Shown one piece after another: positions 9,325 to 59,300 of a stretch of DNA of 64,000 nt. The translations under genes and the position numbers were made by a program. Under the pieces are notes generated by a model. It ran no database searches, was not told where the DNA came from, and saw only the letters and a program-made list of their open reading frames with translations. Numbering within the stretch: position 1 is the first letter of the stretch; each line of letters begins with the position of its first letter. The stretch comes from a virus. Its lineage: Duplodnaviria; Heunggongvirae; Uroviricota; Caudoviricetes. The stretch lies in IMG/VR virus record IMGVR_UViG_2630968933_000007, positions 1 to 64,000 of that record. One strand, given 5' to 3'.

Positions 9325-9395
9325 CAGCAACAACACCAACCGCAGCAGCCTGAAGCCGATTGGGTTAACCCGGGAGATACCGGGACCGTCTGCGG
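9325..9395. repeat. Direct repeat copy A (~71 bp); partner copy B at 10086-10178
   Basis: agcaacaacaccaaccgcagcagcctgaagccgatt...gggttaacccgggagataccgggaccgtctgcgg repeated with few mismatches plus a 23-bp insertion in copy B. Confidence 0.9.
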
Positions 9396-10057: not shown

Positions 10058-10519
10058 GTGCAGCAGGTGCTGATCGTCGAACCGGAGCAACAACGCCAAC
10101 CGCAGCAGCCTGAAGCCGATTCCGCGATGAGCGGGAAGCCGATTGGGTTAACCCGGGCGATGCCGGGACCGTCTGCGGGACGAGTTGATTATCCTGACGT
10201 GTTCGAACGGGTCTGGCGTGAATATCCGCATCGGGCAGGGTCAAACCCGAAGAAATCCGCGTTCAATGCCTGGAGGGCCAGATTACGCGAAGGGGTGTCA
10301 CCGGATGTCGTGCTGGATGGCGTGAGGCGTTACGCAAGATACCTGGAGGCTACCGGGAAAGCGGGAACTGAATTTGTTCAGCAGGCATCGACGTTTTTTG
10401 GCCCGAACAGGAATTTCGAAAATCCGTGGTCGCTGCCGAAGGTTGGCGCAGTCAGCCTGCGTTGCGTGAATCACATTTCTGAACCGGACACCGAAATTCC
10501 GCCGGGTTTCAGGGGGTAA
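10058..10519 (+). CDS. DnaT-like primosomal/replisome-organiser domain protein (reading frame open upstream to 9866)
   Basis: C-terminus ...ISEPDTEIPPGFRG resembles E. coli DnaT C-terminus (…SEPDSQIPPGFRG); listed start is GTG; frame has no stop back to 9866. Confidence 0.6.
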   Translation: MQQVLIVEPEQQRQPQQPEADSAMSGKPIGLTRAMPGPSAGRVDYPDVFERVWREYPHRAGSNPKKSAFNAWRARLREGVSPDVVLDGVRRYARYLEATGKAGTEFVQQASTFFGPNRNFENPWSLPKVGAVSLRCVNHISEPDTEIPPGFRG

Positions 10520-13514: not shown

Positions 13515-13823
13515 TTAAACGAAGCGGATCTGGAGTTTTTTCCCTGTAGCACGGGCGAATTTTTTCAGTGTGGCAAATGATGGGCCGCTTGTACCTGATG
13601 CAAGATTGCTTTCCATTCTGGTTATCGCAGTCGCTTTTGTTCCCATACGTTCAGCAACTTCAGCCTGGGTTAAGCCAGCTTCTTTTCGTGCTGCCAGCAT
13701 TTCATCAAGTAGTGCGAATTCATCGGCGATGGCGTCGTATTCTGCTTTTACTGCGGGGTTAGACAACATTTTTTCTACCATATCATCGTGTGTCATGGTA
13801 GGTGGGGTACGTTTACCAGTCAT
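13515..13823 (-). CDS. HTH (XRE-type) antitoxin, HigA-like
   Basis: 102-aa ORF with HTH ...GLTQAEVAERMGTKATAITRME...; overlaps upstream toxin gene by 11 bp. Confidence 0.75.
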   Translation of the reverse strand: MTGKRTPPTMTHDDMVEKMLSNPAVKAEYDAIADEFALLDEMLAARKEAGLTQAEVAERMGTKATAITRMESNLASGTSGPSFATLKKFARATGKKLQIRFV

Positions 13824-14142
13824 GCTTAACCTCCTTCATTCTGGTTTCAGCTTTTCTAAGCTCGGCAGGTGGAGTTTTTTGCGTTTTCTTTACAAAGCTA
13901 TGCAACATAATGATTCGCTTTCCTTTTAGCGTGCAGTAAAAAACACGCCCTATGCCTTCCGAGCCCTTAAGGCGGATTTCAAACAAACCGTCGCCAAATG
14001 CCTCTGTATGCGGGGAACCAAGATTAGCTCCGTAAATACGCATTTTCTCCGTGTACCGAATGTACCGGGCTTGTAAGGTCTCAGGAAGAGAAAGGATCTC
14101 AGCTTCAACCTCGTCACTGTAGTATTCGATAATGTAGTTCAT
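13813..14142 (-). CDS. RelE/ParE-superfamily toxin, Gp49/HigB-like
   Basis: MNYIIEYY...GDGLFEIRLKG..GIGRVFYCTLKGKRIIMLHSFVKKTQKTP fits Gp49-like toxin pattern; toxin-first operon order. Confidence 0.75.
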   Translation of the reverse strand: MNYIIEYYSDEVEAEILSLPETLQARYIRYTEKMRIYGANLGSPHTEAFGDGLFEIRLKGSEGIGRVFYCTLKGKRIIMLHSFVKKTQKTPPAELRKAETRMKEVKHDW

Positions 14143-14463
14143 GAGAGTAAACATAACAAATTTGTTATATACATTCAAGGTATGTTGACGACAACACATA
14201 TCCGGGATTATATTCTTCGCACGCCAGCAAAATCTGGCGTCGGGATTAGGAACCCCGGATATTCAACCGCGACAGACACACGCCGCGAGCGTGTTTTTTA
14301 TTGTCGTATGCACACGCACATCTGAATTATGGTGGGGCGTATGGGGCAGCCGAAAGGCTGGCCGGTTGGTTGATCCGGTAGTTCCTAACCCTGTACGTCT
14401 CGCCACCCGATGATTAGGAACCTGACGGTGGTGATAGTTTAGAAACCACTCGAGGGCGTCATT

Positions 14464-15135
14464 ATGACAACTCAAGTTTCTGTTGAAACACTCTCCACGA
14501 TTACTTACAAGCAGATCCCCGTTATCACTACTGAACTTTTGGCGCACCTTTACGGCACAGAAGCTATTCGTATTCGCCAGAATCACCACGAAAACAAAGG
14601 TCGTTTCATTGAGGAAAAACACTTCTTCAAACTTGAAGGTGAAACTTTACGTGAGTTCAAGCACAGAGTAGCTTTTAACTACTCTGTGAAAATTGCCCGT
14701 AACGTTCGCTCCCTCATCCTATGGACAGAACGCGGCGCAGCCCGTCATGCAAAAATGCTCGAAACCGATCGGGCGTGGGAAGTGTTCGAAAAACTGGAAG
14801 ACTGCTATTTCAGCCAGGGAAAAACAACACAAACCGAACAGCAGTCGCAGATTCAGCCACAATTCACAGCCGAGGAAATCATCCTCCTTTGCTACATGCA
14901 ACTCTGGATGGAAAAAGCCCGGGACCTTAGCAAGCAGCTGTACCCCATAATGAAAGAGCTGAACTCCTCATACACGAACAAGCTGTATGACATTGCGTTT
15001 GAGACTATCTACATGGTGAAGAAGAACAGAGACGCGCTACTAAGGGAGGTAACACGTCTCGACATGTCAAGTTCCGTTATCCAGCGGGCCATGCCAATGC
15101 TGAAAAGCCTGCGGGCAAGACAATTTGAATTCTGA
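14464..15135 (+). CDS. Antirepressor-like protein (N-terminal ORF6N/Rha-like, C-terminal domain shared with the ant gene at 57722..58351)
   Basis: 223-aa ORF; last ~95 codons ~95% identical to C-terminus of 57722..58351 ORF. Confidence 0.6.
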   Translation: MTTQVSVETLSTITYKQIPVITTELLAHLYGTEAIRIRQNHHENKGRFIEEKHFFKLEGETLREFKHRVAFNYSVKIARNVRSLILWTERGAARHAKMLETDRAWEVFEKLEDCYFSQGKTTQTEQQSQIQPQFTAEEIILLCYMQLWMEKARDLSKQLYPIMKELNSSYTNKLYDIAFETIYMVKKNRDALLREVTRLDMSSSVIQRAMPMLKSLRARQFEF

Positions 15136-15142
15136 AACTAAA

Positions 15143-15162
15143 GGAGCTTCGGCTCCTTTTTT
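15143..15162 (+). terminator. Intrinsic terminator (ggagc-ttcg-gctcc + T6)
   Basis: Hairpin with UUCG loop followed by tttttt. Confidence 0.65.
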
Positions 15163-15189
15163 GTTGGGAAAATCCAGTGAGAGGGAATA

Positions 15190-18040: not shown

Positions 18041-18235
18041 TTGTCTGGCTGCCGGAGAATTTGTTAAAAATTGCATCGCGTGGTGAATCCCCCTCAGCGG
18101 CGGGGCATCTGGCAAAGTGTATGATCCAGCGAACATGCAAATTCAGTAGCCAGGCTGAATTTACCGGGAGGCACCTGGCACCATGCGACAGACAGAAATT
18201 AGGCTATACTTCAGCCCCTCTCCGGAGGGGCTTTT
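18041..18235 (+). ncRNA. Candidate small RNA unit 1 (promoter-like ttgtct-N17-ttaaaa to UCCG-loop terminator)
   Basis: No ORF; promoter-like hexamers 18041-18069; 8-bp stem agcccctc/gaggggct with tccg loop at 18213-18232 + T-run. Confidence 0.3.
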
Positions 18236-18426
18236 CTGTGCAGGATGTGTCACAGTTTCCTGAATTCTGAGTACTGTCCTGTTACTCAGGGTGCTATATT
18301 TTCTGACGTGATGAAAGTCTGCCGGAAGGCGGAACGTATCGGAAATGACCCAGTAGAGAAAACGTTGACTCAGATACCGGTGCTGAGTTACCGGGAAACC
18401 GGCATCACATGACCGCTATCCTTCCA

Positions 18427-18509: not shown

Positions 18510-18720
18510 TTGTCTGGCCAGCGGGAAGTTTGTTAAAAAAATATGGCATGGTGAATCCCCCTGTGCGGAGGGGCATATCAGCGACAGGTGTTTGGTCACA
18601 CCCCTTATCCTTTCTGGTGCGGGTTCAGGTGCTGATACTGAACTCACCGGGAGGCACCCTGCACCATGCATGAACGGTACATAGCGCTACTCTCCAGCCC
18701 CTCTCCGGAGGGGCTTTCTT
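18510..18720 (+). ncRNA. Candidate small RNA unit 2 (paralogue of unit 1)
   Basis: Same promoter architecture 18510-18538, conserved blocks (tggtgaatccccct, accgggaggcacc), same terminator hairpin 18696-18715. Confidence 0.3.
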
Positions 18721-18957
18721 GTTGGATAAAAAAAAGCCCGCGCCGGGAAGCGCGGGTGGCAAGGAATAAACAACAAAACGTGAAGTGATCAATTTTCAGC
18801 TGGCGAATAATACCTGATAGTAATCACTCTGCGCAACTGTATGGTCTTTTTCGTATTGCGGGCTGTAGTCATCCTCCTGTTTCTGAACCCTTGTCCATGA
18901 CTGACGTCAGCCCGCACCTTATCTTGATTGCATACACTATCCCTGCCGGGAGGAATA

Positions 18958-46539: not shown

Positions 46540-49500
46540 ATGGCTTATTCCGATGAACAGCGCCCTGAAGCGCAATTTGGCAACCAGAACCGCAACAGCC
46601 TGAACATTCAGCAGCCGGGCGAGACTGACCGCTATGATGCGTTTTTCTCCGATCCCAATCGCTGGAAGGACAACAGCACGTCGTTCAGCCTGGGCGATGT
46701 ATTGCCAACTATGGGGAAAGGTGTCGCCCAGTCCGTCCGGGGGGCAGGGGAAATGGCCCGTGGACTCGGTGATGCGATGATTCAGAGCCCGGTAAAAACA
46801 GGGGCGCGTATTTTAAATGAGTTCAGCCGTATGGGGCTGCCGGGAGTCGCAACTGTTCAGGATATTTTTGTCGGTGGCAGCAAGGGGGCGGATGAGGTCA
46901 TCGACACTCTGCCTGATGGAAAAAATGCGGTTACTGATATTGTCGGTAAAGGTCTGAAGGTCACAGGCAAGGCAGTCAGTGGCGGCGCTAAAGCCTCGGA
47001 TGAATGGCTGACTGGCAAGATGTCGCCGGGGGCGCTGCGGGCGCTGAATACACCGATGACTGAAGGATATGATGATTCTGCGGTCTGGGTGGCGAAGGGC
47101 GTAAACCTGATTGGTGCCCTTGTACCTGATATGGTTGCAGGCGGTGTGACTAAAAAGCTGGGTGAAGTCACTCTGCGAAAAATGCTGACCGCCGGGCTGG
47201 AGAAAAAATACATTGCGGCAGGGATGCAGCCGGAAAGAGCTACCGCACTGGCAGCAGAAGCTGTCGATAAAAAAATGCCGGATTTATTCCAGGCAGGCCT
47301 GATCACCCATTCCTCAGCCAGCGCACAGGGGCAGAGTGCAATGGCAGCAGCAGACTCTGTTCTTAACGCGGATTACTCTGAGCTGGCGAAGTCCCCGAAA
47401 TTTCAGCAGATGTTTTTGTCAATTGATGCAGATCCGCAGCACGCACAGCTTACTGATCGCCAGAAAATGGATCTGGCAAAAGAGCGTGTTGCCGATGAGG
47501 TGCGCGCGCAGCTGGCAACAGATCCTGAATTGCTGGCTGTGAATGCCATGGCGGCAAAACTGGGCGATGCTCAGTTGCTTAATCTGGCGATGCGGGGCAC
47601 GGCGAAGACCGTTAAAAGCGGCATTGTCAGAAATGCCACGGAACAGGGGACGATTAATGCGGCGCAGGGTGGCTATTCACGCTATCAGGAAAACACGGCA
47701 TTGCGTGAGACTGCCGGAATGGATGTATCACCATGGGAGGGGGTAGCTGACGCAACGATCGAAGGAGCCGCTCTTGGTGCAGCGATGGGCGCACCGTTCG
47801 GTGCGGTTGCCGGATATCGTGGAAAACGTCAGGCCGCAGAAGAAACCGCCATGCGTGAGGCTGAAGTCGTACAGCAGGGTGAAGCAGCCCCGCAACCCGA
47901 ACCGGCTGATCCGGTGGCACAGCATCGCGAATCCATGCAGGGCATGAATCGCGAGCAACTTCTGGAACAGTATGCTGATGCGGATATGGCACATGAGGGA
48001 GACACGTCTGCCGTTCATCGCCGGGAAGCCGCCAGCCAGCTGTTGAATGAACTGGATGAACAGGCGAAGCGACAGGCGGTAATGGATGAGCTGAAGGCGA
48101 AGCCGCGCCCTGAACTGCTTGAGGAATACCGAAAACTCAGCCTGAAGGAAGGGCGTACTGATACTGAAGAGCAGCAGTTACAGGCTATCCGTGATGTGCT
48201 TCGCCCTCAGCAGGAGGCCAGACCGGAGGCACAGCCACAGCCGGAAAATGCGGATGATGGCGACGGGAGTATTTACCCGACGGTGCGGTTCCGCGATCCG
48301 GATGAAGTTCGTATTGAAATTAACGGGAGTGGTGCGTCCAGACCAGCAGAACGCATTGAAAAGGTGCGTCCGGACAACCGTTATTTCACGGATGAAAAAA
48401 GTGCTCTGGGGAGCGACGTTTTCCGCAATGCCAGCGCCACCGGCCTGAAACCGTCCGTAGTAAAGAAAGGCGAGAATCAGTATGCCGTTGAAATGGATAA
48501 TCCTGCGTTCTCTGAAGATGTGGCAACGGAGACCATTAACACCCTGGCTGACGGAGAGCGTATTGCTGATGCTGAACCGATGGAGCAGCCCGCGTTCATG
48601 CGTGACCCGCGATTCCGTGGTTTCACGGGGGATGATACAGAAGTGCAGGCCCGCCTTGCCCGTGGCAACGCGCCGACGGCAGAGGAGCTTGTACGTTCAC
48701 AGATGGCTGAAGGTGATGCCGGTCCGACAGCACAGGAGTTAACTGAGCGTCCACGCCTTCCCGCTCCCGGTGATATTCATCCCGGACAGGGATATCCGTT
48801 ACCAGGAGAAGTGGCGCGTACGCCGGATGAAAATCAGGCCGGACGTGGTGGTCGTTTTACCACAACCGGTGAGGTGAAGGGCCAGAGTTTCCAGAAAGGA
48901 CGTGCGCAGGCACCGGAAAATGCCGCTGGTCGCCGGGGGGAAATACTGGAGGGCGAACCGGTTCGTCGTGGTCTGCCGTCACCGGATGAGCAGAACGCCA
49001 CAGCACCAGTGCGTGAAGGACTTCCTGCACCTGAAAGTCAGCGTGGGGTTGATATGCCACAGCCTGAATCACTCCCTCGTATGGTTCGTGACTCCCTTCC
49101 GGAACTGGCACAGCAGGCAGAAGCACGCAGACAGACCGGGGATAATCGCCAGACCATAACCGATGTTCCGGATACTGAGGTGCCGATGCCGGTAGATAAA
49201 CCGAGCACTCACCAGCAGGCGCGTGGTGCGAAAATTGAAGACTTTGGTGAAGAAATTAAGGGCGCGGCAAAACACCGTTATGCACAGCTTGCCGAAACAC
49301 TGGGTAAAACGCTGGAAGACAGGGATTATTTCACGCAGCCGCTGAGCAAAGTGTTCCCGAAACCGGACTATGCAAAACTGGCGAACGAAGGGGCCGACGC
49401 TGACACACTGGCAATGATAGCGCTGTATCGTAGCGATATTCCGGCGAAGACGAAACACAATACGGCTGGCTGGGGGGAGAGCGTAAAAAAAGTACGACAC

Positions 49501-52500
49501 AGTGTATCGGAAATGCTGAACGGAACGGTCAGCGCGAAACGCCTCGCAGAATGGATGGAAGGCAGAATGCCCTCCCGTTACGCGGATACCTGGCAACTGT
49601 TACGCACTCTGCCACCCTCACAGATGGACAAGGCTTCTGCTTATCGGGTGGTATCGGGTGTGTATCAGGCGGCAGGAGGGAAGCGTTACGATCCGCCACA
49701 GAAACTTTATTCACTGCGCAATAAGGACAATAAGGGGACTAACCTCTTTTTCTCGGAAAGCAGGGATGAATTACTGACAAAGGCGAAAGTCTGGTTTGCA
49801 GAGCTGGAGGAAAAGTCACAGGCGAAAGGAGATGAAAAAACGGCACCGTCACCGGATGACAAAATCAGCTTTGACGTTTACCGGAATACCCGTAGTGGCG
49901 ATATTTTTATCGCTTACGGCAAAAACAAAATGCGGGTGAGAGGTGGTTTTAAGTCAGCCAGTGATGCGCGTAAGTACATTGATTCACATCGTGATGAGCT
50001 TGTTCGTCATGTGAAGGAGATGCGGGAGATTTCGCGTGAGGAGCAGCGTAACGCCACCAACCGCGATCGTACCGGACCAGAACGCCGCAAGGGGGATGTT
50101 TCGCCGGAGCAGTTCAGTGATGCGTTTGGTTTTCGTGGTGTGCAGTTTGGTAATTATGTGGAAGGTCCGCGTCGTCAGGCTGATTTGAACCGGGCTTATG
50201 ACTCGCTGCATGACCTGGCTGATGTGCTGAACGTGCCGACAAAAGCGCTTTCTCTGAACGGTCGTCTTGGGCTTGCTTTTGGTGCCCGTGGTAAGGGTAA
50301 GGCGGCGGCACACTATGAGCCGGGTGAGGTGGCAATCAACCTGACAAAAGGTAACGGACCGGGTGCGCTGGCCCACGAATGGTTCCATTCACTGGATAAT
50401 TATTTTGGTCGTTATGATGTTTCCACTGACGGGAAGATCACGTCAGGTGGCGACTATATGACGGAAGCACAGCGTGCCGGGCGCGTATTTAAAGACGGCA
50501 GATATGTTGATGCGGAATATCCGGTACGTCAGGAGGTTTACGACGCGTTTAAAGGCGTGATGAAAGCGATCAACAGCAGTGACATGCCGCGTCGTTCAGC
50601 GCTTCTCGATGAGGTGCGCTCAAAACCGTACTGGTCAACGGATGTTGAAATGGCGGCGCGTGCCTTTGAGCGTTATGTTCAGGATAAAGCGCGTACGGCT
50701 GGCGTGGAGAATGATTATCTGGTCAATATCCGTAAGGCACCTGAGCACAACACAGATAACACCTGGGCTTATCCGACGAATGCGGAACTGGATGGCGGTA
50801 TTCGTGATGCATTCGATCACCTGTTCAGTACGCTGAAAACCCGTAAGACGGACAAGGGCGTTGCGTTTTATTCCCGTAAGGGCGTGACCCGCACACCTGA
50901 AGGCAATCTCATTTCGGATGTTAACCGCAGTGCGGAAGCCAAAGGCAGCCCGGTCCCGCAGGTTGAAGCGGTTGCCCGTGGCGTGATGAGTGGCATTAAG
51001 GACAGTGACCTGAAGGTCCGCGTGGTGAAGTCACAGAAAGAGGCTGAAGCACTGGCGGGTGAATCATTCGACGGTTACGGCAAGGTGCACGCGTTCTATC
51101 GTCCGGATAAACGTGAAATTGTCCTGGTGGCGGATAACATCCCTGACGGGCGGACCGTACGCGAGAAGTTGCGTCACGAGATTATCCACCATGCCATGGA
51201 GCATGTTGTCACGCCAGCGGAATATCAGACGATCATCAAAACCGTGCTGAAAACCCGCGACAGTGATAACGCCACCATCCGTGAAGCCTGGCGTAAGGTT
51301 GATGCGTCCTATGGTAAGGAATCACCGGAAGTGCAGGCGGGTGAATTTCTGGCACATATGGCGGAGAAACAGCCGAATAAATTCGTGGCGGCATGGGAGC
51401 GTGTTGTTGCCCTGGTCAAAGGGGTACTGCGTCGCACGGGGTTACTGAAGCCGACAGAACTGAACGATATCAGACTTGTTCGCGAGACCATCCGTACGTT
51501 AGGCCAGCGTGTGCGGGAAGGTTACACGCCGCGTGAGGATGGCGCTGGCGCATCGTCTCAGTACTCCCGTAGCGGTAAGCCTGATCCGTTCAAAGTGCCG
51601 GAAGGTGAGGGCGAGCGTTATCGTGATGACCTTGCCAGAATGATGAAGTCGTTACGTTCTGGTGCAATGACTGCAAACATCGGGCGTACGCCGCCGGTAT
51701 TGCGCCACCTTGGCGCACCAGATTTGCCGCTGGTTATCTCCCGCGACACTGTGCGGAAGGCTACCAATGGCGTGAAACATGTGGTGCCAATGGATGTTAT
51801 CGAGAGACTTCCGGAACTGATGCACGATCCGGATGCAATTTACCGTTCCGCGACAGAAAGAAATGCGGTTGTGATGCTGCTTGATGCCATGGATAAAAAT
51901 GGTGATCCGGTCGTCTCGGCAGTGCATATGAAGGCGACAGATAAACGTCTGGAAATTAACAAGGTGGCATCTGTTTACGGTACGGAAAACGGGAAAAAGC
52001 TGAAAAGTATGGAAATGGCTGGATTAACGCTTTACCGGAAGGAGAAATTAAGCCGCGATAACCCTCAGTACAGTGGGCTCCAATTGCCCAAAGAGGAGCG
52101 TTCTTATCGCGGCTCTGTAGATAAAATACTCTATCCTGAAGATATTCGCAAGGGGCCGTATTACTCCCGTACCAGCAGTCTGACACCGGAAGAGACAATT
52201 GCATCGCGTTTTGTGCGCCAGATGCAGGATAAATTCCAGGTGCTGAAAGCTGTTCAGGAGAATATCCGTAAAACTGGCGGAAAAATAGACGACAGTAACA
52301 ACGCTTATATGGCGGAAGAACTCTTCCACGGGAAGGCGGAAAACGACCTGAACGTGATGAAGGAGCGCTACGTTCAGCCACTGGCTAAATTACTGGCGGA
52401 CTACAAAATTGCGCAGGCCGATCTGGATGAGTACCTCTACGCCCGTCACGCGCCGGAACGTAACGCGCATATTGCGAAAATCAACCCGAAAATGCCGGAC

Positions 52501-54906
52501 GGCGGTTCGGGGATGACCAACGCGGAAGCGGCGGAAATCATGCAGCGTGTGCGTAACAGTGGCAAACAGGCACAGTATGACCGTCTGGCAGGGATTGTTG
52601 ACGATATGCTGGCCCGTCGCCGTGAGCTTATCCGTGAGGCCGGACTGGAAGAGAGCGGTGTGGTGGATGCCTGGCAGAACGCCTACCGTTACTACGTTCC
52701 CCTGAAAGGTCAGGATGTTGACGGTGTGGTGTCACTGCCCCGTACAGGTAAGGGCTTCACCATCGGCGGACGTGAAAGCAGGCAGGCCATGGGGCGTGCA
52801 TCCCGCGCACAGTCTCCTTCCACTCAGGCGATACAGGATTTGAGCGAATCGCTGATCCGCCATCGCAAAAACGAAGTGGGTAACGCCTTCCTGAAACTGG
52901 TGCAGGATAATCCCGATAAGGATTACTGGCAGGTATTCACTGATGACAAACCGGACACCATGCGGGCGATTGCAGAGCGTGTTGATCCGGAAACCGGCGA
53001 AACCCGTCGCGAAGTTGTTGAACGTCCGGTGCCTATGGCAATGATGGCGGATCGCTACTTCACCACCAAAAAGGACGGCAAAACTTACTACATTAAACTT
53101 CATGATCCGCGCCTGATGCGTGCGATGAAGAACATGGGGCCGGAAACCAGTAACGCCGTAATCCGTACGCTGGGGAAAGTTAACCGTTTCCTGGCAACGG
53201 TGAACACGTCGTATAACCCGGAATTTCTGGTCAGTAACTTCATCCGTGACGTGCAGACGGCGGTGATGAACCTGAAGGCGGAGCAGGGAAGGAGCGACGG
53301 TAAACTGAAAGGGCTGGATAACTTATCCGCCCTGGCTGTAGTCAAAGACAGCCGTTCTGCAATGTCAGCCGTGTACGCCAGTCTGCGTGGCAAAACCCTC
53401 ACGGGCAAAGGCGCACAGTGGCAGAAAGTGTGGAAAGAGTTTGTTGAGGACGGAGGTAAAACCGGCTGGTTTAACATGGGTGACCTTGAAGGCCAGAAGA
53501 AGGAAATGGATCGCCTTGTATCGCTGGCGAAGGGAGGATGGAAAGGCCAGAGTATCGGTGCATGGCATTCGTTCCTGAACCTGGTCGAGGATGCCAACGG
53601 CGCGGTTGAAAACGCTCTGCGTCTTTCTGCCTATAAACACGCCCGTGATGCCGGTTTGTCACGCCAGCAGGCGGCATCTCTTGCCAAAAACATGACGGTG
53701 AACTTTAACCGTCGTGGTGAGCAGGGAGCGCTGATGAACTCGCTGTATATGTTTGCCAACGCCAGCATTCAGGGGACCGCAAACCTGGTGAGAACGCTCG
53801 GACATCTTAATGGCGACGGGCCGTTACCGGAGCGCCTTCGCTGGAAGAATCTCAATGTACCGCAGAAAATCGCGCTTGCAGCTGTGGGAGCGGGTTATCT
53901 GCTTGGCTCGCTTAACCGCAGTGTTGCGGGGGAGGATGATGACGGGGTTAACTGGTACGACAAGGTGCCGTATCATGTGAAAGAGCGTAACCTCGTCATT
54001 ATGAAATCGATGTTCGGGGGCAGGGCCGGAGAGTACTGGAGTATTCCTCTGCCTTACGGGTACAACGTTTTCTTCCTGCTCGGGCATACCTCTGAAGGTG
54101 TGGCTGCTGGTGACCTGACGGCGTCCCGTGCTGCCGGTAATGTTGTCGGTGGTATCCTGGGGGCATTCAGCCCGATTGGCAGTGAGACGTCGGAAACGCT
54201 GTCCGGGGCATTGCTGAAAAATGCAGCACCGACAATTCTGCGTCCGTTTGCGAATCTTGCCATGAACGAAAACTTCATGGGGGCGCAGATTTACCAGGAG
54301 AACATGCCGTTTGGTACACCAAAACCTGACAGCCAGCTGGGAAGACGTTCAACGCCAGAAGCGTACAAGGCGTTTGCATCCTGGCTGAATGCGTTCTCAG
54401 GTGGCAGCCAGTATCGTCCCGGCGCGGTGGATATCACACCGGAATCGCTGAAATTCTGGATTGACTATATCTCCGGAGGGACAGGGCGCTTCATTTCCAA
54501 AACCACAGATGCGGCGGTGAAATCGCTGAACGGTATTGATATACCGGAGCAGCAGGTGCCCTTCCTGGGGAAAATTTCGGGTGAGGTGATGCCGTATGCA
54601 GACCAGCAGAAGATGTACGACCGGATGACAGAGGTTGCGCAGTATCACGCAGAGCTGAAGAGTCTGACCGGTGCAGAAAGAACGGCGTTCATTGACGAGA
54701 ACAACGGAAAATTGTTGATGAACGGGCTTATGCAGGATACCCGGAAGAGACTGAAGGATTTGCGCAAACAGCGCGATGCCATTTATGCCGACAGTTCTCT
54801 CAGTCTGGCGCAGCAGGCGGCGATGGTGAAATCGGTAGAGCGGGATATGAAGGTTGCCGTGGATCGCTTTAACCGCGAGTACAACAAAAAAGTGGGAGTG
54901 GATTAA
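46540..54906 (+). CDS. Giant 2788-aa protein (putative virion-associated/ejection protein) with HExxH motif
   Basis: Single uninterrupted ORF; HEWFH at residues 1279-1283 (nt 50374-50388); terminator 46513-46537 upstream. Confidence 0.7.
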   Translation: MAYSDEQRPEAQFGNQNRNSLNIQQPGETDRYDAFFSDPNRWKDNSTSFSLGDVLPTMGKGVAQSVRGAGEMARGLGDAMIQSPVKTGARILNEFSRMGLPGVATVQDIFVGGSKGADEVIDTLPDGKNAVTDIVGKGLKVTGKAVSGGAKASDEWLTGKMSPGALRALNTPMTEGYDDSAVWVAKGVNLIGALVPDMVAGGVTKKLGEVTLRKMLTAGLEKKYIAAGMQPERATALAAEAVDKKMPDLFQAGLITHSSASAQGQSAMAAADSVLNADYSELAKSPKFQQMFLSIDADPQHAQLTDRQKMDLAKERVADEVRAQLATDPELLAVNAMAAKLGDAQLLNLAMRGTAKTVKSGIVRNATEQGTINAAQGGYSRYQENTALRETAGMDVSPWEGVADATIEGAALGAAMGAPFGAVAGYRGKRQAAEETAMREAEVVQQGEAAPQPEPADPVAQHRESMQGMNREQLLEQYADADMAHEGDTSAVHRREAASQLLNELDEQAKRQAVMDELKAKPRPELLEEYRKLSLKEGRTDTEEQQLQAIRDVLRPQQEARPEAQPQPENADDGDGSIYPTVRFRDPDEVRIEINGSGASRPAERIEKVRPDNRYFTDEKSALGSDVFRNASATGLKPSVVKKGENQYAVEMDNPAFSEDVATETINTLADGERIADAEPMEQPAFMRDPRFRGFTGDDTEVQARLARGNAPTAEELVRSQMAEGDAGPTAQELTERPRLPAPGDIHPGQGYPLPGEVARTPDENQAGRGGRFTTTGEVKGQSFQKGRAQAPENAAGRRGEILEGEPVRRGLPSPDEQNATAPVREGLPAPESQRGVDMPQPESLPRMVRDSLPELAQQAEARRQTGDNRQTITDVPDTEVPMPVDKPSTHQQARGAKIEDFGEEIKGAAKHRYAQLAETLGKTLEDRDYFTQPLSKVFPKPDYAKLANEGADADTLAMIALYRSDIPAKTKHNTAGWGESVKKVRHSVSEMLNGTVSAKRLAEWMEGRMPSRYADTWQLLRTLPPSQMDKASAYRVVSGVYQAAGGKRYDPPQKLYSLRNKDNKGTNLFFSESRDELLTKAKVWFAELEEKSQAKGDEKTAPSPDDKISFDVYRNTRSGDIFIAYGKNKMRVRGGFKSASDARKYIDSHRDELVRHVKEMREISREEQRNATNRDRTGPERRKGDVSPEQFSDAFGFRGVQFGNYVEGPRRQADLNRAYDSLHDLADVLNVPTKALSLNGRLGLAFGARGKGKAAAHYEPGEVAINLTKGNGPGALAHEWFHSLDNYFGRYDVSTDGKITSGGDYMTEAQRAGRVFKDGRYVDAEYPVRQEVYDAFKGVMKAINSSDMPRRSALLDEVRSKPYWSTDVEMAARAFERYVQDKARTAGVENDYLVNIRKAPEHNTDNTWAYPTNAELDGGIRDAFDHLFSTLKTRKTDKGVAFYSRKGVTRTPEGNLISDVNRSAEAKGSPVPQVEAVARGVMSGIKDSDLKVRVVKSQKEAEALAGESFDGYGKVHAFYRPDKREIVLVADNIPDGRTVREKLRHEIIHHAMEHVVTPAEYQTIIKTVLKTRDSDNATIREAWRKVDASYGKESPEVQAGEFLAHMAEKQPNKFVAAWERVVALVKGVLRRTGLLKPTELNDIRLVRETIRTLGQRVREGYTPREDGAGASSQYSRSGKPDPFKVPEGEGERYRDDLARMMKSLRSGAMTANIGRTPPVLRHLGAPDLPLVISRDTVRKATNGVKHVVPMDVIERLPELMHDPDAIYRSATERNAVVMLLDAMDKNGDPVVSAVHMKATDKRLEINKVASVYGTENGKKLKSMEMAGLTLYRKEKLSRDNPQYSGLQLPKEERSYRGSVDKILYPEDIRKGPYYSRTSSLTPEETIASRFVRQMQDKFQVLKAVQENIRKTGGKIDDSNNAYMAEELFHGKAENDLNVMKERYVQPLAKLLADYKIAQADLDEYLYARHAPERNAHIAKINPKMPDGGSGMTNAEAAEIMQRVRNSGKQAQYDRLAGIVDDMLARRRELIREAGLEESGVVDAWQNAYRYYVPLKGQDVDGVVSLPRTGKGFTIGGRESRQAMGRASRAQSPSTQAIQDLSESLIRHRKNEVGNAFLKLVQDNPDKDYWQVFTDDKPDTMRAIAERVDPETGETRREVVERPVPMAMMADRYFTTKKDGKTYYIKLHDPRLMRAMKNMGPETSNAVIRTLGKVNRFLATVNTSYNPEFLVSNFIRDVQTAVMNLKAEQGRSDGKLKGLDNLSALAVVKDSRSAMSAVYASLRGKTLTGKGAQWQKVWKEFVEDGGKTGWFNMGDLEGQKKEMDRLVSLAKGGWKGQSIGAWHSFLNLVEDANGAVENALRLSAYKHARDAGLSRQQAASLAKNMTVNFNRRGEQGALMNSLYMFANASIQGTANLVRTLGHLNGDGPLPERLRWKNLNVPQKIALAAVGAGYLLGSLNRSVAGEDDDGVNWYDKVPYHVKERNLVIMKSMFGGRAGEYWSIPLPYGYNVFFLLGHTSEGVAAGDLTASRAAGNVVGGILGAFSPIGSETSETLSGALLKNAAPTILRPFANLAMNENFMGAQIYQENMPFGTPKPDSQLGRRSTPEAYKAFASWLNAFSGGSQYRPGAVDITPESLKFWIDYISGGTGRFISKTTDAAVKSLNGIDIPEQQVPFLGKISGEVMPYADQQKMYDRMTEVAQYHAELKSLTGAERTAFIDENNGKLLMNGLMQDTRKRLKDLRKQRDAIYADSSLSLAQQAAMVKSVERDMKVAVDRFNREYNKKVGVD

Positions 54907-55056: not shown

Positions 55057-55581
55057 ATGGCAGCGTATTTGCTGAAAAAACATGGCGGATCTATGCGTTT
55101 CATTAAGCTGATGTATCTCTCTGACCGCAAAGCAATGGAGTTGTATGGTTTTCCCATTAGTGGTGATCATTATTTCTCTATGAACAAAGGACCCGTTTTA
55201 TCGCAGACATATTCTTTGGTTAAGGATGGAAGTGAAAACGAGTACAGTCCGTGGGAATCATGGATATCTGATGTAGCGGATCATAAGGTTGAAATGTGGC
55301 GTACATTTTCTTCTGTTGATGAGCTGGGGGAGTTATCGCCCGCAGAAATAGAGTCAATGGACATAATTTTTGGTCAATATGGAGGTTGGGATGCGTTCAG
55401 GCTTTGTGATGAAACTCACAGAATTTGCGGTGAGTGGCGCGATCCGCATGGTTCATCAATTCCAATCAGCCTTAAGGATATATTTATTGCTCTTGGAAAG
55501 TCGCCAGAAGCAGCAACAGTAATGGCGAATAGCATTTATGCGCAAAATAATCTTGATATATTATTAAGTGATCTGAGGTAG
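55057..55581 (+). CDS. Panacea-domain (DUF4065, SocA-like) protein
   Basis: 174-aa ORF ...FIKLMYLSDRKAMELYGFPISGDHYFSMNKGPV... pattern; in-frame MFNEEKVA-stop directly upstream. Confidence 0.55.
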   Translation: MAAYLLKKHGGSMRFIKLMYLSDRKAMELYGFPISGDHYFSMNKGPVLSQTYSLVKDGSENEYSPWESWISDVADHKVEMWRTFSSVDELGELSPAEIESMDIIFGQYGGWDAFRLCDETHRICGEWRDPHGSSIPISLKDIFIALGKSPEAATVMANSIYAQNNLDILLSDLR

Positions 55582-55669
55582 TCGGGATGATGTTCAGCCC
55601 TTATTTGTATTTACCGGGGAGGGAAGATGTTTAATTCCGATTCCCCGGCTCCACAGGCCTAACCTAACT

Positions 55670-56314
55670 TTATGTAACAGTCCATGCAGGGCTGAAATCT
55701 GCCTGCTGAAATAACTCCGTTAGCCCGCTAATCTGCTTTAACCTCAGAACTTCATCCTGGTCCATCCCCAGTTCTGTTCCGATACGTTCATCAGTCCAGC
55801 CAAGACGTGAAAGATCTCTGACAATATCAGACATTGAGGTTATCTGGTGTTTCCCCCTGGCTCTGTTATGTCGGATAGTCGCGGCAATACGTGAGGTTTG
55901 TCCCTTTCGGTCTGGATTAATACAGGTTACTGGTAGCCAGCCTTTCAGGCGTTTTCCAGTAACTGTTCTTCTACCTAGTAACTGCCTATGAAAACCATCC
56001 ACCACCAGGTAATGGCTTGTTTCTTCCGAAACAACAATTGGTTGAGTAAAACCGTCTTTTTCCAGAGATTGTTTCAGTAATTTTTTTTCGCTTGGGGCCA
56101 TGACATTGGGATTATAATCGTTAGCGACAATTTCATCCGCTTTTACCCACAGCACACAGTCCACTGGTTCTTGAGCAAAGGGGCTGATCTCATGGAGTAC
56201 GCAGCGGAGATGGTTCAGGGCCTGTATGGTTTTCTCTTCAGATTGTTCCTGACTGAAGTACTGTCGAATCATCTTGCTCAGCACCTCCACCTCTGGTGTC
56301 ACAGAATTCCCCAT
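55670..56314 (-). CDS. ibrB: IbrB-like ParB/Srx-type nuclease-domain protein
   Basis: 214-aa ORF with ParB-like motif region ...QPIVVSEETSHYLVVDGFHRQ...; overlaps ibrA-like gene by 16 bp. Confidence 0.65.
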   Translation of the reverse strand: MGNSVTPEVEVLSKMIRQYFSQEQSEEKTIQALNHLRCVLHEISPFAQEPVDCVLWVKADEIVANDYNPNVMAPSEKKLLKQSLEKDGFTQPIVVSEETSHYLVVDGFHRQLLGRRTVTGKRLKGWLPVTCINPDRKGQTSRIAATIRHNRARGKHQITSMSDIVRDLSRLGWTDERIGTELGMDQDEVLRLKQISGLTELFQQADFSPAWTVT

Positions 56315-57525
56315 TCCTTCCTCCTTTCATTCATACGCTGCAGGTAACGTTCATAGTGCCGGGGTTTGTTGGGGCTGAAGGAGAGCGTTCGGCACCAGAA
56401 ATCATTCTTTATGAGAGTCTTACAAATACGTCGCCAGGAGGGAACATCCCGGCAGCCCAGATCATTTTCCTGTTCATCCGGGATATCATCCGGGAATCCC
56501 CGGTTCTGATACCAGCGCAGGTAAACTGCTATCTTGTTGCGGTAGTGTTCAGCCGTTCTTTCCGGCATTACGTCCAGCAGGAAGAACGCATAGCTGCGCC
56601 AGGTATGATGGGATGGTTTTGACATCCGTTTACGCAGGGCAAAATAGGCCCCGCTTTCATTGGCATAAAGAGCCCCACTGGCAGCACCAGATACTCGTTC
56701 ACACATCCGTGCCCAAGTTTCTGGCTCCAGAACATGATAAAGCCATAGTCCCTTACGCTGTTCCGGGCCAAAAGGCTCACAGACACGCATATTACGTAGA
56801 GGAATGCCTGCGCGGTACATCAAATCATACAGAGGATTGTAGATTGCACAGGTTTTAGCGTTATATACCCAGATATCGTTGGTTTTCCAGTCATACAGCG
56901 GATACATGGTGTAGTAAAAACCTTCAGGTGACGCCGTGGTCCAGGGTTTATCATCTGCATATCTCAGTTTTCGTTGGGAAACCAGTCCCATAAATCTGTT
57001 AAGAGATTCATCCGCGCGGACTCCAGTCAGTATTGCCACGCTACATTGGTTACTTGCGAACCAGGAAGAAAAAGCCGGGACAAATTCTTCAAAAGTCATG
57101 GCGTAGCGGTAAAAGGGGAAATACGCCATATCAGTAATAGCATCTTCCGGTGGCTGTCGAACCCACTCTACACCGGGCTCCCAGCATATCCACTCAGGCT
57201 GAAACTGCGAGACACCATTTACTGTCGTCAGGGGAAGTGCAACCCAGTAAAAGGTATCTGTTACATCTTGGTACATCATCCGCATCTTCTGTATATGATC
57301 AATGGTGCATTGATACTGGGCTTCCCAGTCAATGAACAATACAGAAAAACGACGTTTCTTCCTGTAGGCCACTTCGGCTACAAGATGGAAAAGTACAGTG
57401 GAATCTTTACCGCCAGAAAAAGATAAACATACAGAAGAGAATGTTTCAAACAACCATTCAATGCGGTGAATGGCTGCTGACAAAACATCTTCTCCAGTTC
57501 TGATTTTTGTTATAGTTACCGGCAT
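56299..57525 (-). CDS. ibrA: IbrA-like PAPS-reductase-family (PP-loop ATP pyrophosphatase-like) protein
   Basis: 408-aa ORF with PP-loop-like SFSGGKDS motif near N-terminus. Confidence 0.65.
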   Translation of the reverse strand: MPVTITKIRTGEDVLSAAIHRIEWLFETFSSVCLSFSGGKDSTVLFHLVAEVAYRKKRRFSVLFIDWEAQYQCTIDHIQKMRMMYQDVTDTFYWVALPLTTVNGVSQFQPEWICWEPGVEWVRQPPEDAITDMAYFPFYRYAMTFEEFVPAFSSWFASNQCSVAILTGVRADESLNRFMGLVSQRKLRYADDKPWTTASPEGFYYTMYPLYDWKTNDIWVYNAKTCAIYNPLYDLMYRAGIPLRNMRVCEPFGPEQRKGLWLYHVLEPETWARMCERVSGAASGALYANESGAYFALRKRMSKPSHHTWRSYAFFLLDVMPERTAEHYRNKIAVYLRWYQNRGFPDDIPDEQENDLGCRDVPSWRRICKTLIKNDFWCRTLSFSPNKPRHYERYLQRMNERRKEWGIL

Positions 57526-57693
57526 ACAATCTGATAAAAATAGCGAGGGTTTGCATTTTACCTAGTAACGTTATGTAACTATTTTTTTGAATAAAGGCAA
57601 TGAGATAATGATAAAAAATGTTTATCTAATGTACTGAGCTCTTCTCTTTATTGTATTAACTCTTCGATTTCAGCGGCGTTGTCGTTCAGGTAT

Positions 57694-57714
57694 AAAAAAA
57701 GGAGCCGAAGCTCC
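57694..57714 (-). terminator. Intrinsic terminator after ant (same hairpin as 15143-15162, inverted)
   Basis: ggagc-ttcg-gctcc + T7 on minus strand. Confidence 0.65.
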
Positions 57715-57721
57715 TTTGGTA

Positions 57722-58351
57722 TCAGAATTCAAATTGTCTTGCCCGCAGGCTTTTCAGCATTGGTCTGGCCCGCTGAACTACGAAACTCGACTGGTCAAGC
57801 CGTGCCGCCTCTCTCAGTAGCACATCTCTGTTCTTCGTCACCATGTAGATAGTCTCAAACGCAATGTCATACAGCTTGTTCGTGTATGAGGAGTTCAGCT
57901 CTTTCATTATGGGGTACAGCTGCTTGCTAAGGTCCTGGGCTTTTTCCATCCAGAGCTGCATGTAGCAAAGGAGGATGATTTCCTCGGCTGTGAATTGCGG
58001 CTGTGGTTCTGCTTGTACTGGCTGAATGTTGCGAAGTTTCTTTTCGCACTCGATGAAGTAGCGGCGGATCTGGCGACCTTTTTCGTTACGTTCAACCATC
58101 GCAAGCTCTTTGGCTGTGTCGAGGGTGAGGTGGTAATCCTTGCGGCGGCGGCCTGGAGTTTTCGCCAAATTTGGCGAAAATAGAATGTAGTCTAAATTTT
58201 CTACGAATCCATACTCGTTTAGCCTGGCCCGTATCCAGTTAGAAAAATCTTTACCTACCTCTAAAAATCCATGCAAATCACGCGCGTTCACCAGAAGCGT
58301 AGGTTCATTTGAGATTGTACCTTCAAACACAGGGATGAGTTGAGTGGTCAT
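57722..58351 (-). CDS. Antirepressor, AntA-like N-terminal domain + C-terminal domain shared with 14464..15135
   Basis: Start MTTQLIPVFEGT with SD aggagg; ...DFSNWIRARLNEYGFVENLDYILF... AntA-like. Confidence 0.7.
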   Translation of the reverse strand: MTTQLIPVFEGTISNEPTLLVNARDLHGFLEVGKDFSNWIRARLNEYGFVENLDYILFSPNLAKTPGRRRKDYHLTLDTAKELAMVERNEKGRQIRRYFIECEKKLRNIQPVQAEPQPQFTAEEIILLCYMQLWMEKAQDLSKQLYPIMKELNSSYTNKLYDIAFETIYMVTKNRDVLLREAARLDQSSFVVQRARPMLKSLRARQFEF

Positions 58352-58600
58352 GATGACCTCCTTTGGCTTTTTTCGAGAAATGCCACCACAAGATGTGGTG
58401 CCGGGAGGCTCGAAACGGCCCAAAAGATACCGCGGACTTATTCCCCTTGCGGGTGTTGTATTCGTCGCCCTCCCGACATTGATCGGGGATGTGACCGCAC
58501 ACTGTGCTATCACTGAATAACAGGCATAAAAAATCCAACACTGACGGGGTTGGTTTAATCCGCTTTTGGGAGGTTTTCGAGGCCTCGGCGCGGAGTATAG

Positions 58601-58885
58601 TCAGTATTGGACGCAGTCGTCAACCATCGCAAGCTCTTTGGCTGTGTCGAGGGTGAGGTGGTATTCCTTGCGGTTGTGACCGCCTCTACCTTTTGCTTCC
58701 CGAATTTGGGAAGCAATCATATAGTCCTGATTTTCAACGAAACCATATTCAGCAATACGTTCTGTTATCCACGATGCAAAGCGTTTACCAACCCCAAGGA
58801 AAGCGTGTAGATTGCGAGCATTGCATAGAAGGGCTGCTTGGTTTGAGATAGAACCGTTGAATACGGGGATGAGTTGACTGGTCAT
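58601..58885 (-). pseudogene. Truncated second AntA-like copy (N-terminal 94 codons only)
   Basis: MTSQLIPVFNGSIS... with identical SD; homologous to 58086-58351 but ends prematurely. Confidence 0.5.
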
Positions 58886-59300
58886 GATGACCTCCTTATT
58901 TGTTTAGTTTATAACCGCCAGTTAGTAGCTGGCGGTCGGGTGTCAACTGAGCCAAATAAGAAGCTCTGGGCATATTCCCCTTGCGGGTGTTGTATTACGC
59001 CTCTCCACCCGACCTTTGTACGGATGTAACTATGCCAAATTGCAGGCATAAAAAAGCCGCAAAGCTATCGGGTGCGGAGACCGCTTATTTGTTCAGTGCG
59101 ATCAGTATGCGATAGCTCTGGCGGATTTGTCAAATCGTGCAGTAACATCCTTTTCTTCCTTGCCATTTCTCAATGATGACAAAGGGTGGATTCGGATTGG
59201 TATTGGGACAAAAGTGAGACACACAAAGCTTTGCATCGGCTTACAAAGCTTTGCATGTTTTTCAATGTTGGGACGTGTGAGCGCAGAAATGACGGGCTAT

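Follow-up and report, generated by a model that had tools for sequence, protein, structure and literature searches.

Why should the late region of a prophage lie between two inverted copies of the same sequence, and does the arrangement serve to turn over what lies between them? The question arises from a stretch of 64,000 nucleotides (positions 1 to 64,000 of IMG/VR record IMGVR_UViG_2630968933_000007, here called the window), which holds a 933W-like prophage, lacking stx and inserted in ynfG. A preliminary description, made from the sequence alone, reported an inverted pair of about 310 bp (14853-15165 and 57690-58000), about 95% identical, and proposed that recombination between the copies would invert some 42.5 kb. 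I will argue that the repeat is very probably an ordinary by-product of gene orientation and of cassette sharing through modular exchange, rather than an inversion switch.

The pair itself is real. Its arms, compared base by base, occupy 14854-15162 (plus strand) and 57695-58003 (minus strand), each 309 nt long and ungapped, and agree at 285 of the 309 positions, so that the identity is 92.2% and not the figure first given. They consist, as had been claimed, of gene 3' ends plus terminators: arm 1 takes in the final 93 codons of an ORF6N-type ant gene, with its stop codon and intrinsic terminator, and arm 2 the corresponding parts of an AntA-type ant gene. The similarity ends sharply at both borders. 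A repeat search of the whole window against itself finds no other inverted pair of 40 nt or more, and on binomial grounds a match of 309 nt at 92% cannot have arisen by chance in 64 kb. Nor is it an assembly artefact of the window, since complete E. coli genomes and the sequenced phage PhiR5_2 have the same pair of arms.

The arms are separated by the 42,532 nt that a crossover would invert (15163-57694), and this segment does contain the late region. It carries ninB, ninE, rusA, ninH, a 204-aa gene in the position of Q, two STnc100 RNAs and a gene for a nanS-like esterase, together with the genes for lysis, terminase, capsid and tail, a gene encoding a polyvalent protein of 2,788 aa and a SocA/Panacea gene. 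The genes ibrB and ibrA fall within the bracket as well.

The two genes that own the arms stand one at each end of the late region and converge, and for that reason the tail they share appears as an inverted repeat. Their coordinates are those of the preliminary description. Gene 1 (14464-15135, plus strand, 223 aa), situated between a higBA-like pair and ninB, encodes an ORF6N domain (residues 12-98; 71.3 bits, against a Pfam gathering cut-off of 27.8) followed by P22_AR_C (residues 129-194). Gene 2 (57722-58351, minus strand, 209 aa), which adjoins ibrA/ibrB and the right prophage end (attR), starts with the ATG at 58351, preceded by a AAAGGAGG ribosome-binding site, and encodes AntA (residues 21-89; 93.6 bits, cut-off 27) followed by P22_AR_C (residues 118-180). 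The P22_AR_C matches score 31.2 and 33.4 bits in the two proteins (cut-off 22.4), and both products have full-length matches to phrog_377 ("anti-repressor Ant"). It had been said that the genes share only a C-terminal domain, and this is borne out: the C-terminal domains are identical at 85 of 97 residues, and the N-terminal domains, ORF6N versus AntA, are unrelated. The names ORF6N and AntA were well chosen; the accompanying label "Rha-like" finds no support, there being no match to Phage_pRha. A simple inverted duplication was considered and rejected, since the N-terminal halves, leaders and flanks are unrelated.

By their likeness to P22 Ant and Phi24B Ant, the two products are putative antirepressors. 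Structure has little to add. Searched against solved structures, neither protein sequence gave a match below E = 0.7. An AlphaFold model of the cassette domain predicts a compact three-helix bundle (pLDDT 82), for which Foldseek returned generic helical bundles only, none at E <= 0.001, and no functional lead.

The terminators follow the stop codons directly and share the same hairpin, an 8-bp stem with a TTCG loop (15140-15159 on the plus strand, 57717-57698 on the minus strand), leading into a T run. That of gene 1 (15140-15166, plus strand) reads AAAGGAGC-TTCG-GCTCCTTT and then the T run; its hairpin and first T's, to 15162, are inside arm 1. That of gene 2 (57691-57717, minus strand) likewise has its hairpin and first T's, down to 57695, inside arm 2.

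Upstream of the arms the two loci go separate ways. Gene 1 is preceded on the plus strand by a promoter-like site (14185-14214), an isrK-family sRNA with its own terminator (14221-14299; 68.9 bits, gathering score 50) and an element of the C4 antisense-RNA family (14325-14410; 67.5 bits, gathering score 45), the last of these 54 nt upstream of the start codon. Gene 2 has instead, 40 nt upstream of its start codon, an element of the sRNA-Xcc1 family on the minus strand (58392-58477; 73.4 bits, gathering score 53), with a promoter-like site at 58623-58594. Beyond it is a third ant-type module, a 94-aa ORF (58601-58885, minus strand) whose sole domain is AntA, P22_AR_C being absent, and upstream of this ORF stands a second sRNA-Xcc1 element (58926-59014, minus strand; 69.1 bits) with a promoter-like site at 59133-59104. 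This ORF and gene 2 have in common a 54-nt direct repeat, 98% identical (58092-58145 and 58620-58673). The sRNA-Xcc1 family belongs to no clan in Rfam.

Each ant gene thus appears to form an independent module, running from promoter-like site through C4- or Xcc1-family RNA and ant to terminator, probably of the same kind as P1 immI and Gifsy-1 isrK-anrP. In computed pairings between the loops of the Xcc1-like RNAs and the downstream ribosome-binding regions, the observed energy was reached by 4 of 300 and by 0 of 300 shuffled targets. For the C4-like RNA and the leader of gene 1, the computed energy of the full-length duplex is no better than that of shuffles (155 of 300). Control of translation by these upstream RNAs is best called putative.

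The mismatches between the arms are far from evenly spread. There are 2 in the 160 nt of 14860-15019, which include the longest exact run (98 nt, 14922-15019), 19 in the 74 nt of 15020-15093, and 2 in the 69 nt of 15094-15162. The central patch (15020-15093, plus strand) therefore holds 19 of the 24 mismatches, and with them 9 amino-acid changes between the two copies. Synonymous divergence along the cassette runs 0.063, 0.514 and 0, that is, pS of 0.51 (with pN of 0.17) in the patch and of 0.06 and 0 in the nearly identical flanks. Read from the sequences, such patchiness indicates recombination or gene conversion.

The same conclusion is suggested by the relatives of this prophage. The 309-nt cassette is found with the same borders in dozens of related phages, joined to varied N-terminal domains, leaders and neighbours. 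At 80 loci in IMG/VR it is attached to several alleles of ORF6N or to AntA, with differing leaders and neighbours, and Bro-N is a further N-terminal partner (L136). The central patch has two alleles, each of which occurs at both loci in other phages. Conversion-type mosaics are seen in both senses: a ninB-linked copy with the type-2 patch occurs in L163, a scaffold of 295 kb, and in L167, a Logan contig, and 24 long contigs have AntA-linked copies with the type-1 patch. Where one prophage has two copies, their identity is 69.6%, 91%, 92.2%, 96.1% or 97.4%, and every pair is convergent. Domain shuffling, which the preliminary description had invoked, is the right term for all this, yet it has long been known for this protein network.

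From these observations the following explanation may be assembled. The repeat is a common 3' cassette, made up of about 93 codons of P22_AR_C (the predicted three-helix bundle) and a Rho-independent terminator, and owned by two paralogous genes of the antirepressor type ("Bro network") within one prophage. The cassette is a unit of exchange, its copies trading sequence by homologous or homeologous recombination, gene conversion included. Crossing-over within it is probably possible at low frequency, presumably through RecA or through the Bet/Gam, NinB and RusA of the phage itself, but inverted products do not persist in finished genomes. Genes for Bet (of the RecT family), Gam, NinB and RusA are all present in the window. 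The prophage cI has an S24 peptidase domain, so the prophage should also be RecA-inducible.

If the segment does invert, then each ant gene should sometimes be found beside the other's neighbour. The parental junctions were found in 52 and 18 of 5,426 complete E. coli genomes, and recombinant junctions of either type in none of them. The junction of ORF6N-ant with ibrA, the one type run against the phage collection, is absent from the phage records, and inverted orientation was not seen in any of the long contigs examined. The reciprocal junction, in which AntA-ant is followed by the cassette and ninB, occurs neither in IMG/VR nor in 185,579 species-representative genomes, nor in the 24 long contigs that encode the predicted reciprocal protein; together with the complete E. 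coli genomes, these are the sets in which it was sought, the large metagenome collection lying outside them. The proposed inversion of about 42.5 kb is physically plausible, given the precedent of lambda Red (PMC2327257), but is represented in no finished E. coli genome. As for inversion isomers, one of the two expected junctions is seen, in contigs only.

These contigs deserve attention as a counterpoint to a purely passive by-product. ORF6N-ant, the cassette and ibrA are joined in 11 contigs from 11 assemblies, all draft or metagenome (L003/L084, L118, L119, L164, L165, L166 and L168-L172), which are assumed to be short-read. L118, L165 and L166 derive from metagenome samples (OIDD01, ERZ28598591 and ERZ28629028, respectively). 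The contigs range from an IMG/VR contig represented by 1,116 nt (L003/L084) through one of 4.7 kb (L165) to the 9.8 kb of L118, where 3.3 kb of the replication side is followed by the cassette and then by 6.8 kb running from ibrA to tail genes, in inverted order, and to the 16.8 kb of L164, which comes from an isolate draft (GCA_025140135.1). Given these contigs, the repeat may be more than a passive by-product. The ORF6N allele shared by the first three to be found was considered as a possible mark of a distinct lineage and rejected as such, being simply the common allele (419 index blocks, against 1 for the allele of the window).

There is about an even chance that the contigs are chimeras of short-read assembly, formed at a repeat longer than the k-mer, with no rearranged molecule behind them at appreciable frequency. 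In favour of this stand the confinement of the junction to draft and metagenome contigs and the absence of the reciprocal junction from the sets searched. Many of the contigs measure only 1.2-3 kb, two have MEGAHIT k119 names, and one has a coverage of 2.4x. Parental alleles are identical without interruption over as many as 131 nt (allele-B copies against type-2 copies; the corresponding figures are 98 nt in the window and 127 nt in an IMG/VR pair), which exceeds k = 119. Assemblies do break in this repeat, since a protein search with the 93-aa module matches almost only "partial" proteins at contig ends. Furthermore, phages that combine the allele-B ORF6N with a type-2 AntA copy are common, and are in the parental arrangement in contigs of 4.9-5.4 Mb from three assemblies. 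What chimeras explain poorly is that L164, L118 and L165 extend far into unique sequence on both sides, which is unusual for a branching repeat node, and that only one junction is seen where both types would be expected equally, bearing in mind the range of the reciprocal search.

Nearly as good a case can be made that the contigs are real and the repeat an active natural substrate of recombination, some E. coli carrying stably rearranged prophages. The crossover might then involve the two arms, or else the cassettes of two different prophages; I regard both the general reading and these two routes as quite possible, though short of an even bet. In its favour, the switch in L164-L172 falls inside the 131-nt exact tract (14902-15032), where a crossover would be most likely, and exact runs of 98-131 nt provide uninterrupted identity sufficient for RecA or Red. 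In its flanks L164 agrees with parental lysogens at 99.9% identity, and lambda Red is known to invert segments between diverged inverted repeats (PMC2327257). Set against this are the missing AntA-ant / ninB junction, the lack of any finished genome or phage record with ORF6N-ant joined to ibrA, the nature of the contigs (several of 1.2-1.6 kb or low coverage), the ability of an exact repeat of this length to give chimeric joins, the frequency of "partial" database proteins with this domain, and the case of L118, whose switch would have to fall in the last 24-37 nt of the cassette. The stronger proposition, that the contigs record natural inversion isomers of 933W-like prophages in gut E. coli, with the late block rewired, strikes me as improbable.

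It is likewise unlikely that selection has kept the C-terminal domains alike, because they form hetero-oligomers or bind the same repressor or partner, and that the DNA repeat reflects concerted evolution. The 41 residues invariant among 17 diverse sequences of the module would fit such constraint, as would the modelled bundle, if it serves as a protein-interaction module; the near identity of the outer cassette at synonymous sites has also been counted on this side. However, in other prophages with both genes the identity of the copies is as low as 69.6% (L022/L075), the variable patch differs at the protein level between the copies of the window, and the third module does without P22_AR_C altogether. 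Programmed site-specific inversion, giving phase variation of the late region, is rejected as scarcely credible: only the geometry of inverted arms around a functional block speaks for it, whereas no invertase or resolvase is annotated in the close relatives PhiR5_2 and the DETEC-S792 prophage, no invertase was found among the window proteins scanned against Pfam (not every small ORF being among them), the arms are 309 nt of coding sequence and not short crossover sites, their identity varies from 70% to 97% across prophages, and all finished genomes show one orientation.

Modular exchange of a shared cassette, then, is the reading that I prefer, and it makes this locus a clear and well-bounded case of lambdoid phages swapping domains of regulatory proteins. 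The exchanged unit is a domain-plus-terminator cassette with fixed borders, a DNA-level trace across dozens of phages and visible conversion patches. There is a practical side: short-read assemblies of 933W/Stx-type prophages break, or are joined wrongly, at this repeat, and contigs that end or switch at the cassette should be treated with caution. If the recombinant junction were real, it would provide an intra-prophage route to the inactivation or rewiring of prophages in a family that carries Shiga toxin genes. In true isomers, the nin-Q-lysis-virion block would lose its connection to pR and come to lie downstream of the AntA modules, next to attP. Leftward transcription (pL/int side) could reach Q and the late genes only after excision and circularisation, and late expression would be coupled to excision, or else the prophages would be locked in a non-inducible state.

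How does the arrangement compare with known systems? The invertible segments of the Gin/Cin/Pin type (for example, that of e14; PMC4272514) resemble it in that inverted repeats bracket a segment in a prophage. Those systems have a dedicated serine invertase acting at short sites to switch tail-fibre ends, and both orientations are present in clonal cultures (PMC4272514); none of these features (serine invertase, short sites, coexisting orientations) is seen here. Lambda Red is an experimental precedent for a lambdoid phage with Bet and Gam inverting the segment between diverged inverted repeats. With inverted repeats of 800 bp at 4% divergence, Martinsohn, Radman & Petit (2008; PMC2327257) obtained 1e-3 inversions per growth cycle, and at 22% divergence 9e-5, and their work also backs such exchange as a builder of mosaics. 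Their repeats of about 800 bp flanked a small pL segment, whereas the present arms, at 309 nt and 8% divergence, have 42.5 kb between them.

The Stx phage Phi24B has an antirepressor gene, ant, whose product resembles P22 Ant in its C-terminal part (Fogg et al. 2011; PMC3064807). It belongs to the rightward early operon and precedes the late promoter region, a position comparable to that of gene 1. When it was deleted, the activity of pR' after induction was about 27-56% of that in the wild type (PMC3064807). The paper mentions neither a second copy nor an inverted repeat. In Gifsy-1 an anti-repressor-like gene that is translationally silent is transcribed from the isrK promoter, and IsrK activates it (PMC4825925). 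The isrK- and C4-family RNAs directly upstream of gene 1 recall P1 immI (c4 antisense RNA-icd-ant) and Gifsy-1 isrK-orf45-anrP (PMC4825925). The AntA genes of the window are likewise preceded by same-strand structured RNAs, here of the sRNA-Xcc1 family. In the present case the pairing of RNA and target is computed only and, for gene 1, no better than chance.

Finally, ORF6N, AntA, Bro-N and P22_AR_C are all named members of the "Bro network" (Iyer, Koonin & Aravind 2002, Genome Biol 3:research0012, as cited in PMC10111431). The likeness to this Bro / KilA-N / Ant network is plain, P22_AR_C being combined with ORF6N and AntA in the window and with Bro-N in relatives. What the present case adds is a cassette of 309 nt defined at the level of DNA, with fixed borders that take in the terminator, present twice and inverted within one prophage, and bearing signs of conversion between its copies.

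Whole-window self-comparison finds a sole inverted repeat 40 nt or longer, consisting of two 309-nt arms (14854-15162 and 57695-58003) spaced 42,532 nt apart. The preliminary description gave the right coordinates for this repeat but set its identity at about 95%, which is too high: ungapped alignment gives 285/309 (92.2%), with a sharp loss of similarity at both borders. The mismatches are clustered (2 in 14860-15019, 19 in 15020-15093, and 2 in 15094-15162), and the arms match without interruption over at most 98 nt. Each arm consists of the last 93 codons, stop, and terminator of an ant-type gene, the first in ORF 14464-15135 (+; gene 1) and the second in ORF 57722-58351 (-; gene 2), and is closed by an identical hairpin, AAAGGAGC-TTCG-GCTCCTTT, with a T run behind it. 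I will refer to this unit as the cassette. The inverted repeat is a by-product of two convergent genes with a common, exchangeable 3' cassette and not an inversion device.

The protein of gene 1 combines the domains ORF6N and P22_AR_C, and that of gene 2 AntA and P22_AR_C (Pfam, all above curated cut-offs). The whole length of each matches PHROG 377 ("anti-repressor Ant"), and BLASTP aligns them with each other in their last 97 residues only (85/97 identical). On these results, the contrast drawn earlier between ORF6N and AntA N-termini is correct, while the term "Rha-like" finds no support, no Phage_pRha match having been found. When modelled by AlphaFold from a 17-sequence alignment, the last 104 residues are predicted to form a three-helix bundle (helices 17-46, 52-77, and 85-102; mean pLDDT 82), and the patch variable between the arms would make up the end of helix 2, the following loop, and the start of helix 3. 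Solved structures, searched by sequence and by fold, yielded no significant match to the Ant proteins or their C-terminal domain. There is also a third ant-type module, a 94-aa AntA-only ORF (58601-58885, -) without P22_AR_C, which has a 54-nt direct repeat in common with gene 2 (58092-58145 and 58620-58673, 98% identical).

The cassettes reside in a lambdoid prophage of the 933W type (short-tailed Stx phage), in which neither stx genes nor tRNAs were found. Its left part encodes Bet (RecT family), Gam, an exonuclease VIII-like protein, cI with an S24 peptidase domain, Cro, and a DnaC-like protein, and the replication-gene region contains a 49-nt direct repeat (9347-9395 and 10130-10178, +; 92% identical, 783 nt apart). 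Downstream of gene 1 lie genes for NinB, RusA, a nanS-like esterase, an N4-gp56-type capsid protein, a collagen-repeat tail fibre (32885-34669, with Gly-X-Y repeats at 33626-34527, +; family D1, Pfam Collagen), and, at the end of the virion block, a 2,788-aa "large polyvalent protein" (46540-54906, +; domains LPD5, LPD1, MuF_C, and LPD38). The STnc100 sRNA family is represented by two tandem copies (18048-18241 and 18517-18726, +; 139 and 130 bits) between a 204-aa gene in the Q position, with no Pfam match, and the esterase gene; this is where Stx phages carry their stx genes. Between the virion genes and gene 2 (55057-57525) are minus-strand genes for PAPS-reductase/DUF3440 and ParB-like proteins, neighbours of gene 2 that are annotated in related records as IbrA and IbrB, and a plus-strand SocA/Panacea-domain gene, interrupted by an insertion sequence in several relatives.

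The window is collinear with Escherichia phage PhiR5_2 (PV340546; recorded host K-12 MG1655), in which both ant genes are present in the same arrangement. Among public contigs, only GCA_000768405.1 JPKH01000024.1 carries the exact protein of gene 1, and it is probably where the window comes from. On its right, the prophage abuts minus-strand genes: the N-terminal remnant (37 aa; 59301-59414) of a gene for a 4Fe-4S protein and two paralogous molybdopterin oxidoreductase genes (808 and 807 aa; 59425-61851 and 61909-63990), about 72% identical in DNA (repeat families D2-D6). In the gene names of the K-12 map, this arrangement is consistent with a prophage inserted into ynfG, downstream of ynfE and ynfF.

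All three ant-type genes have a structured RNA of a known Rfam family upstream on the same strand. Gene 1 is preceded by an isrK-family RNA (14221-14299, +) and, directly upstream, a C4 antisense-family RNA (14325-14410, +); gene 2 is directly preceded by an sRNA-Xcc1-family RNA (58392-58477, -), and a second lies upstream of the AntA-only ORF (58926-59014, -). All four score well over the Rfam gathering scores, and a promoter-like site lies ahead of each. By computation, the loops of both Xcc1-like RNAs pair with the downstream Shine-Dalgarno regions better than with shuffled targets, while the C4-like RNA of gene 1 does no better than with shuffled ones. Directly upstream of the isrK-like RNA is a HigB/HigA-like toxin-antitoxin pair (Gp49 and HTH; 13515-14199, -). 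The RNA-ant modules resemble the layout of P1 immI, a structured RNA and then an ant gene, and that of Gifsy-1 isrK-orf45-anrP. In the latter, an anti-repressor-like gene is transcribed from the isrK promoter, is silent at the level of translation, and is activated by IsrK (PMC4825925). In the Stx phage Phi24B, the ant gene of the early rightward operon accelerates derepression, and its deletion lowers post-induction pR' activity to about 27-56% of wild type (PMC3064807).

The case for the cassette as a unit of exchange comes from 80 IMG/VR loci encoding it, sorted by flanking sequence. Its borders are identical at all classified loci, while its upstream partners are several ORF6N alleles (75-100% identical to that of the window) or AntA alleles. 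An isolate contig (L136) has it fused to Bro-N. Leaders are exchanged as well, some ORF6N genes having one of the Xcc1 type (L047, L048; H66-H78). The central patch (15020-15093) has alternative alleles, each found at both loci. Two ninB-linked copies (L163, a 295-kb scaffold, and L167) combine an AntA-type patch with their own terminator-proximal bases, and AntA-linked copies in 24 long contigs have an ORF6N-type patch; these are clear conversion-type mosaics. Since synonymous divergence between the window's copies is 0.063 in the 5' part, 0.514 in the centre, and 0 in the 3' part, the patchiness reflects a history of recombination rather than differing constraint. The DNA repeat as such shows no sign of conservation, the identity between copies within one prophage being 69.6% (L022/L075), 91% (PhiR5_2), 92.2% (window), 96.1% (DETEC-S792), and 97.4% (L028/L038). 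A metagenome prophage (L173; ERZ28565786 scaffold_188) shows another mosaic joint at the cassette border, its AntA-ant cassette followed not by ibrA/ibrB but by exo-xis-type genes (zf-DksA/TraR, DUF4752, Ead/Ea22, and DUF551).

The claim that recombination between the arms would invert 42.5 kb is mechanistically plausible, but finished genomes do not bear it out. Crossover predicts two junctions, R1 (ORF6N-ant/cassette/ibrA) and R2 (AntA-ant/cassette/ninB). Neither was found in 5,426 complete E. coli genomes, where best coverage was 62% for R1 and 74% for R2, the latter from parental ORF6N-ninB junctions with the same Xcc1-type leader; the parental junctions were covered in full in 52 and 18 genomes. 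Searching complete genomes and 50,697 phage records with an actual contig of the R1 type likewise found no R1. Exact-protein look-ups with AntA-type Ant, NinB, IbrA, the common ORF6N allele, and the predicted R2 protein (longest 24 or 25 contigs each) gave parental context in all ten contigs listed per protein, and no inverted one. Among them, contigs of 4.9-5.4 Mb from three assemblies have both copies, convergent. The annotations of two close relatives, both fully annotated prophages, contain no invertase.

Inversion would leave the ant reading frames intact, with hybrid tails, and would take the ninB-Q-lysis-virion block out of the pR operon and place it downstream of the AntA modules by attR/attP. 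Q in an inverted prophage would lack its early promoter. Once the prophage had excised and circularised, transcription running leftward through int could in principle extend to Q. Inversion isomers would be defective or at least altered, which fits their absence from finished genomes.

One loose end worth attention is the R1 junction in draft assemblies. An anchored pattern scan of IMG/VR found R1 once, the parental junctions 24 and 4 times, and R2 not at all; the same scan of a metagenome collection found R1 in two contigs. Altogether, the cassette connects the replication region and ORF6N-ant with ibrA/ibrB in eleven contigs from draft or metagenome assemblies: L164 (GCA_025140135.1 ABIDSY010000069.1), L118 (OIDD01001488.1), L119, L165, L166, L168-L172, and L003/L084. 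L118 (9.8 kb), from the metagenome scan, runs from 3.3 kb of replication region through the cassette into 6.8 kb in inverted order, which takes in ibrA, ibrB, and the Panacea gene and reaches the end of the gene for the polyvalent protein. The exact hybrid protein P0050, the common ORF6N allele with the AntA-type patch, is carried by ten contigs, two linked to ninB and eight to ibrA (L169 with only 19 nt downstream). One of the ibrA-linked contigs, 16.8 kb long and from the isolate draft GCA_025140135.1, has flanks 99.9% identical to those of parental lysogens and ends in an insertion sequence 2.3 kb past the cassette.

Whether at least some of these contigs are real molecules is about evenly balanced. 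Eleven independent assemblies share the junction, three of the contigs are long, one assembly is from an isolate, and the crossover position is sensible, the switch in the ibrA-linked P0050 contigs falling within a 131-nt tract identical in both parental alleles. Furthermore, lambda Red inverts DNA flanked by inverted repeats, with a frequency per growth cycle of 7e-3 at 0% divergence, 1e-3 at 4%, and 9e-5 at 22% (PMC2327257), and the prophage encodes Bet, Gam, NinB, and RusA. Assembly artefact could account for the same contigs, however: all come from draft or metagenome assemblies, assumed to be short-read, several have a length near 1.2 kb or low coverage, the exact shared tract exceeds common k-mer sizes, contig ends truncate many database proteins with this domain, and L118 requires a switch in the last 24-37 nt of the cassette. 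The reciprocal R2 is also missing from IMG/VR, species-representative genomes, and the complete E. coli genomes, though two prophages in opposite orientations could also recombine to give R1 without R2 if the other product were lost.

The shuffling of ORF6N, AntA, Bro-N, and P22_AR_C domains has been known since 2002 (Iyer, Koonin & Aravind, as related in PMC10111431), and homeologous exchange was shown in 2008 to be a source of lambdoid mosaicism (PMC2327257). The 309-nt inverted repeat is a well-resolved instance of both.
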